Assembly (NCBI RefSeq): GCF_003334815.1
Contig: NZ_QOWO01000059.1
Reading direction: 5' to 3' (one strand)
From: Escherichia coli
GTDB taxonomy: Bacteria; Pseudomonadota; Gammaproteobacteria; Enterobacterales; Enterobacteriaceae
DNA: 12,341 nucleotides
In this document: one piece after another, positions 7,786 through 8,102 of the stretch
How positions within the stretch are numbered: position 1 is the stretch's first letter
How the letters are laid out: the number at the start of each line of letters is the position of its first letter
Translations under genes and position numbers: made by a program
Notes under the pieces: model-generated
Database searches by the model: none
The model's input: only the letters and a program-made list of their open reading frames with translations
Told to the model about the DNA's origin: nothing

Positions 7786-8102
7786 TCAGGCAAGGCTGTT
7801 ATTGCCGGATGCGGCGTGAACGCCTTATCCGACCTACACAGCACTGAACTCGTAGGCCTGATAAGACGCGCAAGCGTCGCATCAGGCAATGCTGTTATTG
7901 TCGGATGCGGCATGAACGCCTTATCCGACCTACACAGCACCGAACTCGTAGGCCTGATAAGACACAACAGCGTCGCATCAGGCAATGCTGTTATTGTCGG
8001 ATGCGGCGTGAGCGCCTTATCCGACCTACACACAGCACTGAACTCGTAGGCCTGATAAGACACAACAGCGTCGCATCAGGCGCTGCGGTGTATACCTGAT
8101 GC
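7786..8102. repeat. Tandem REP/BIME array (three ~96-bp units of paired palindromic units)
   Basis: gccggatgcggcgtgaacgccttatccgacctac and gtaggcctgataagac...gcgtcgcatcaggc motifs recur with unit starts at 7804, 7900 and 7996 (96-bp period); a terminal imperfect hairpin cgcatcagg...cctgatgcg closes the array. Classic E. coli REP sequences in a pepA-holC intergenic spacer. Confidence 0.85.

Follow-up and report, generated by a model that had tools for sequence, protein, structure and literature searches.

A three-unit tandem REP array, a standard BIME-2, in the pepA-holC spacer of Escherichia coli, and its variation between strains

The DNA analysed, referred to here as the window, is a stretch of 12,341 nt from Escherichia coli (contig NZ_QOWO01000059.1 of assembly GCF_003334815.1) and is 100% identical to sequence from E. 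coli strain 300709. Its plus strand carries pepA, coding for leucyl aminopeptidase (6269–7780; NCBIfam NF002072, 1093 bits; stop codon TAA at 7778–7780), which is annotated in strain 300709, holC, coding for DNA polymerase III chi (8134–8577; NCBIfam NF004345, 337 bits), and, directly downstream of holC, valS (8577–11432; TIGR00422); the annotation of strain 300709 has holC and valS as well. A match to the Rfam family Ysr276 (Yersinia antisense sRNA 276; 175 bits) lies inside the pepA coding region on the minus strand (6827–7021) and appears also in the draft genome L028 described below; it probably reflects the conserved coding sequence of pepA and not an E. coli sRNA. Between valS and yjgN there is a GC-rich hairpin (11453–11476, AAGGCCGGAGAATGCTCCGGCCTT) with one mismatch to a K-12 bidirectional terminator listed with REP341. 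The annotation of strain 300709 gives yjgN as a pseudogene with an internal stop (L001, 9837–11033), and the fragment of yjgN that is open in the window (11486–12184, minus strand, 232 aa) had no NCBIfam match. Towards the other end, ahr (1008–2069) and yjgR (2199–3701) are just 129 bp apart (2070–2198), and the L-idonate operon (idnK, idnD, idnO, idnT and idnR), which takes up ca. 5 kb between yjgR and ahr in K-12, is absent from the window. A tRNA gene on the minus strand (773–854) occupies the position of leuX, the gene for tRNA-Leu (CAA) in K-12 and a known integration site for islands; the adjoining 223-aa open reading frame (50–721, minus strand) did not match any NCBIfam model.

A promoter and terminator scan found neither a sigma-70-like promoter nor an intrinsic terminator in positions 7500–8400. 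The segment immediately preceding holC (8104–8133, plus strand; TATTTAAATCCACCACAAGAAGCCCCATTT) lies outside the repeat and is identical in the two classes of spacer allele described below, BIME and BoxC. These ca. 30 nt are conserved from Escherichia to Citrobacter, Kluyvera, Salmonella and Klebsiella, being nearly identical in the last four, the rest of the spacer back to the pepA stop codon being replaced. Since no promoter-like site was found in this leader, it is probably a translation-initiation region. In the supplementary terminator table of the 2026 preprint on REP325, the entry for the K-12 valS/yjgN terminator names ‘yjgN:pepA:holC:valS’ as affected genes, and this one string hints that pepA, holC and valS are cotranscribed, with transcripts that cross the array. 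A literature search on the pepA-holC-valS operon returned nothing useful.

Within the 353-bp spacer between pepA and holC there is a repeat array of ca. 288–300 bp (7783–8081), composed of three head-to-tail units of 96, 96 and 98 bp with a 93% match. Tandem Repeats Finder reported it as the single strong array in the window (7786–8081, period 96, 3.1 copies, 93% matches, score 511), and a repeat search placed in-register copies at 7783–7878, 7879–7974 and 7975–8070. Together with the NCBIfam assignment of the flanking genes, these searches bear out the three-unit REP/BIME array that had been proposed for this spacer in an initial, sequence-only reading. An extra CA at about 8032 brings the third unit to 98 bp and lowers its ungapped identity to 66%. 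Identity from unit to unit within the array is 91–94%.

Each unit runs Y-type REP, short linker (S), Z2-type REP and a further linker, with Y facing Z2 tail to tail, so that the oppositely oriented pair of REPs initially described for each unit is identified, by reading the sequence and with a REP head pattern, as Y and Z2. The three Y REPs have the form G[C/T]CGGATGCGGC...CTTATCCGAC-CTAC and the three Z2 REPs the form GTAG-GCCTGATAAGAC...GTCGCATCAGGC, and these align, respectively, with the Y half and the Z2 half of the Rfam naRNA4 consensus. The REP head pattern occurs nine times in the window against 1.95 expected, a count reached in none of 200 shuffles, and all six perfect or near-perfect matches are confined to the pepA-holC spacer.

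All array features are given on the plus strand. The left edge (7783–7803) comprises 9 nt similar to the 3′ arm of a Z-type REP (GCGTCAGGC, 7783–7791) and a head-to-head linker (AAGGCTGTTATT, 7792–7803), in register with 7879–7899 and 7975–7995; in alignments, the BIME alleles part from the BoxC alleles at about 7787. The first unit continues with Y-type REP 1 (7804–7837; GCCGGATGCGGCGTGAACGCCTTATCCGAC followed by CTAC), the tail-to-tail short linker ACAGCACTGAACTC (7838–7851), Z2-type REP 1 (7852–7887; GTAG followed by GCCTGATAAGACGCGCAAGCGTCGCATCAGGC, with the pattern match on the minus strand at 7875–7887) and the 12-nt head-to-head linker AATGCTGTTATT (7888–7899), which aligns to the linker of the naRNA4 model but differs from it in sequence. 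In the second unit, Y-type REP 2 (7900–7933; GTCGGATGCGGCATGAACGCCTTATCCGAC followed by CTAC) and Z2-type REP 2 (7948–7983) flank a second copy of the short linker (7934–7947). In the third, Y-type REP 3 (7996–8029, ending in CTAC) and Z2-type REP 3 (8046–8081, starting with GTAG) are separated by the copy that carries the extra CA (8030–8045), and the short linkers are thus 14–16 nt long; each of the six REPs matched the pattern. The right edge (8082–8103) consists of a 13-nt loop and a half-REP, CCTGATGCG (8095–8103), which pairs with 8072–8080 of the last Z2 to give a hairpin of −17.1 kcal/mol (8070–8105) and is found alike in alleles of one, two and three units. The end initially assigned to the repeat, 8102, takes in the array and reaches into this trailing half-REP. 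Counting from the pepA stop codon, the array begins 3–6 nt downstream and its first full hairpin 23 nt downstream, and 52 nt lie between the end of the array and the holC start; the REP/trans-translation effect of Liang et al. (2015) reportedly requires that a REP lie no more than about 15 nt from the stop codon.

The units differ in the ways first described for them: the Z2 loop of unit 1 is GCGCAAG, that of units 2 and 3 ACAACAG, and the Y loop changes from CATGAAC in unit 2 to CGTGAGC in unit 3. Additionally, Y REPs 2 and 3 have GTCGGAT/ATCCGAC where the canonical sequence is GCCGGAT/ATCCGGC, and their stem is intact because both arms changed together.

The REP, or palindromic unit, family accounts for about 1% of the E. 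coli chromosome, and BIME-2 arrays have been known since the 1980s and 1990s. Y and Z2 REPs are imperfect palindromes of 30–40 nt with a GTAG/CTAC tetranucleotide at their foot; BIME-1 joins Y and Z1 in a single copy, through a long L linker that often has an IHF site, and BIME-2 has Y and Z2 joined by short linkers and tandemly repeated in multiple copies (PMC3333891). The pepA-holC array contains three Y and three Z2 REPs, which alternate with their inverted partners in tandem copies of period 96–98 over short linkers of 14–16 and 12 nt; it is extragenic, lying wholly between the pepA stop codon (7780) and the holC start (8134), it has 1, 2 or 3 units depending on the complete E. coli genome examined, and it lacks the long L linker that bears an IHF site. 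The features of BIME-1 and of RIB/RIP elements are not those seen here, the array having Z2 instead of Z1, three tandem copies and no IHF consensus. The array is therefore a standard BIME-2 of three tandem Y-S-Z2 copies, and we consider our best explanation as a whole, which joins this identity to the function proposed below, very likely. With the BIME-2 family of the Gilson/Bachellier nomenclature (PMC3333891) it shares the alternating Y and Z2, the GTAG/CTAC tails, the short linkers and the tandem repetition, and it shows no essential difference; the head-to-head linker AATGCTGTTATT is a variant specific to this locus, and two of the three Z2 loops are the ACAACAG variant, whose sense-strand hairpin is weaker by about 6 kcal/mol.

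The closest counterpart is the BIME in the pepA-holC spacer of K-12 MG1655 (159-bp spacer, NC_000913.3 4484281–4484439), which has the same site, flanks and Y and Z2 sequences but one unit instead of three. From its position it is probably REP342 of EcoCyc, as REP341 lies at valS/yjgN; the K-12 RefSeq annotation has no repeat feature for this spacer. The element is thus of a kind already known, and neither the census of the locus nor its BIME/BoxC dimorphism is surprising.

Binding of gyrase and IHF had been suggested for the array. The IHF half of this suggestion fails, as it is the long L linker of BIME-1 that binds IHF (PMC3333891) and the IHF consensus WATCAANNNNTTR has no match in 7781–8133, its only two matches in the window being at 2813 and 3383. 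Since the array is a BIME-2 without an IHF consensus, the relevant protein is gyrase and not IHF. In Topo-Seq experiments, a subset of BIME-2 elements had more gyrase cleavage sites than expected, mostly at Y REPs (PMC6379681). By analogy, the Y REPs would serve, on the DNA, as places that DNA gyrase prefers to cleave, and the pepA-holC array is likely a gyrase site.

Comparison with 5,426 complete E. coli genomes confirmed the expectation that copy number would vary among strains. The spacer contains a BIME allele in 4,014 of these genomes and a full BoxC allele in 1,401, ca. 11 belonging to neither class. In three pooled, evenly spaced samples (n = 139 rows), 46% had three units, 20% two units, 7% one unit and 26% BoxC, and arrays of at least four units did not occur among these 139 rows. 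The three-unit allele has a 353-bp spacer, as in the window; the two-unit allele (257-bp spacer) is identical to units 1 plus 3 of the window; and the one-unit allele (159-bp spacer), found in K-12 and its derivatives, combines, as a chimera, the Y of unit 1 with the Z2 of units 2/3. The BoxC allele, exemplified by E. coli O111:H8 7-32 9A (L004, 433–533) and strain 3036 (L005), has a spacer of 121–132 bp without any REP, and its flanks show no difference as far as the pepA stop codon on one side and the holC leader on the other. On its minus strand it carries CCCTCTCCCTTAGGGAGAGGGTTAGGGTGAGGG, matching the type-A motif tabulated for the intrastrand-triplex repeat BoxC/PIT/TMECO (Holder et al., 2015; PMC4666352). 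Like the array, BoxC is a small dispersed intergenic repeat, present at a median of 6 places per genome, and is found in the same spacer; it is nevertheless unrelated in sequence, occurs as a single copy of ca. 100 bp and is an alternative allele, absent from the window. A few genomes have an interrupted spacer. In strain CUVET20-416 (L007, 3576–4868), for instance, the pepA-holC array is interrupted by IS621, of the IS110 family, which separates GTAG from GCCTGATAAG in a Z2 REP and has CT at both junctions; REPs are a known target of IS621.

A search for the first ten codons of HolC, written as a degenerate pattern, identified 119 loci in contigs from one genome per species. The gene directly upstream of holC was pepA in 109 of them, with spacers of 64–455 bp. 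E. albertii has three units in this spacer, E. whittamii two and Escherichia sp. MOD1-EC7003 one. Four units with a period of 98 bp occur in a draft genome labelled E. coli SCPM-O-B-8794 (L028, 4344–4798), a count that could be wrong, the assembly being a draft. The best identity of this array among complete E. coli genomes was 92.6% and, as none exceeds this value, SCPM-O-B-8794 belongs to a divergent lineage. At the same position, a single Y-S-Z2 pair is found in Citrobacter and Kluyvera and one REP in Salmonella diarizonae, and BoxC-like motifs occur in several Buttiauxella and in other genera. The presence of a REP or BIME at the site predates the split of Escherichia and Citrobacter. Spacer content differs across the Enterobacteriaceae, where conservation is limited to roughly 30 nt before holC (ATTTAAATCCACCACAAGAAGCCCCAT). 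Mean identity between units was 94.4% within arrays versus 91.6% between arrays, with partial clustering of units by array, and units 1, 2 and 4 of SCPM-O-B-8794 are 99–100% alike. This pattern of similarity points to amplification and contraction specific to each lineage, rather than to an ancient triplet that became fixed. Copy number would shift by slippage or by unequal recombination between units, possibly aided by TnpA-REP (REP-associated transposase), and the array may itself be a target of REP-specific recombinases.

The spacer RNA is strongly folded, with z-scores of −8.9 for the sense and −8.7 for the antisense strand, and all six REPs are predicted to form hairpins of −14.3 to −20.5 kcal/mol each in the sense RNA (−15.3, −17.4 and −19.2 kcal/mol for Y 1 to 3; −20.5, −14.3 and −14.3 kcal/mol for Z2 1 to 3, with −20.2 kcal/mol for Z2 2 in antisense). 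In pepA transcripts, these six hairpins would block 3′-to-5′ exonucleases, protecting the pepA mRNA, and would partly stop RNA polymerase, reducing read-through into holC-valS. We consider that the array probably acts in both ways, by extension from other REPs, and the stabilisation of upstream mRNA named in the sequence-only reading is a reasonable supposition on the same ground. REP325 stabilises the mRNA upstream and attenuates the downstream gene, in part through Rho, and tandem gene pairs separated by REPs show upstream-biased expression genome-wide; the effects of REPs depend on context, and terminal REPs do not generally lengthen mRNA half-lives (10.64898/2026.03.23.713779). The element is readily resized or replaced between strains, which suggests that its local effect is modest and tunable, and not essential. 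Likewise, that it can contract to one unit, or give way to BoxC in a quarter of strains, speaks against a strong, specific requirement for it.

The same lability raises the possibility that the array does nothing for the cell and is a selfish or neutral cluster of REPs that recombination resizes and the spacer tolerates. We regard this as possible though on the unlikely side, and it overlaps with protection and attenuation by the array without excluding them. It would explain why the spacer is freely swapped among one, two or three units, BoxC and an IS621 insertion, and why other small repeats take its place across the Enterobacteriaceae, with only the 30 nt before holC conserved. It also fits the hairpins, which were not consistently more stable on the transcribed strand: for 32 REPs taken from seven Escherichia arrays, the mean was −17.2 kcal/mol in sense versus −16.6 in antisense for Y REPs and, for Z2 REPs, −18.5 in sense versus −19.7 in antisense, a gap driven by one G-to-A change. 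A wholly idle element is, however, harder to reconcile with the genome-wide upstream bias of tandem gene pairs that bear REPs, with an occupation of the site that predates the Escherichia/Citrobacter split, and with the paired changes in both arms of Y REPs 2 and 3, which preserve the stem.

The array also resembles a proposed small RNA. Two segments on the minus strand, 7855–7930 (Y2, head-to-head linker and Z2 1) and 7951–8026 (Y3, linker and Z2 2), match the Rfam covariance model for naRNA4 (RF02564) with 82.2 and 73.2 bits, above the gathering score of 59.5, and have the Y-linker-Z2 architecture of REP325 (PMC4550694). The array could accordingly be read as coding for minus-strand, naRNA4-like sRNAs that bind HU and condense the chromosome, as proposed for REP325, a reading to which we give very little credence. 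The alignments show that the model is a Y, a linker and a Z2 read head to head, and any BIME-2 offers such junctions: an array of n units yields n−1 matches, which makes none for the one-unit allele of K-12, one for the two-unit allele, two for the window and three for the four-unit array. The matches are antisense to pepA, holC and valS, and are thus not on the transcribed strand, with no promoter-like site nearby; their linker is unlike that of the model, and the sense strand scores just 52 bits, below the gathering score. In a control scan, the K-12 REP325 gave six matches to RF02564 of 95–111 bits, all on the yjdM/yjdN strand. REP325/naRNA4, in the yjdM-yjdN spacer of K-12, is likewise a BIME-2 between co-oriented genes, built of Y, linker and Z2, that answers to the same covariance model, and is the best-studied REP acting both as mRNA stabiliser and as attenuator. 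It differs from the array in its six units of period 100, in its linker and spacer, in its higher scores (95–111 versus 73–82 bits in the window) and in the orientation of its matches, which follow yjdM/yjdN instead of being antisense to pepA/holC; it appears to be transcribed from the yjdM promoter (PMC4550694). Even for REP325/naRNA4, a role in compaction is disputed by a 2026 preprint from laboratories working on naRNA4, which reports no measurable compaction of the nucleoid (10.64898/2026.03.23.713779). From the n−1 rule, the antisense position and the 52-bit score in sense, it follows that the naRNA4 matches mark a BIME-2 and not an sRNA gene.

The sequence-only reading had warned that the number of copies might mislead assemblers, and three copies could in principle stem from a collapsed or expanded repeat, because tandem repeats of ca. 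96 bp can be miscounted by short-read assemblers and copy number does vary between records. This is highly improbable here. The array is just 288 bp long, and several independent complete genomes match the window at 100%, with the 1,141 bp surrounding the array the same in at least three of them (300709, Seattle 1946 and 52F4); three units are moreover the state of ca. 46% of the complete genomes sampled. A collapse is further made unlikely by units that can be told apart at 91–94% identity, and the one- and two-unit alleles have a defined make-up, either units 1 plus 3 or a chimera of units 1 and 3. Lastly, a 99-codon open reading frame does exist on the minus strand (7764–8063), but the chance that it is a real gene for a small protein is negligible and we consider it spurious, since it is made entirely of REP repeats, has no NCBIfam match, is left unannotated by PGAP in the identical strain 300709 and is cut or absent in the one-unit, two-unit and BoxC alleles.

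For annotation, then, the array should be labelled as REP/BIME-2, and neither the 99-aa open reading frame nor the two naRNA4 matches should be reported as genes; beyond this hygiene, its importance is small. The spacer can also be used as a short typing marker, its alleles differing in length by about 96 bp, and it illustrates how REP arrays provide landing sites for IS621. With its alleles of 1, 2 and 3 units and BoxC, it constitutes a handy natural series for relating the number of REPs to the expression of neighbouring genes. It is conceivable, although rather improbable in our view, that these alleles act as a heritable dial that sets lineage-specific ratios of pepA to holC-valS or local barriers to supercoiling. 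If so, holC, whose leader would lack a promoter of its own, would depend for its expression on read-through across the repeat, and the spacer would offer a natural allelic series for the tuning, by REP number, of an operon that contains a replisome subunit and an essential tRNA synthetase.
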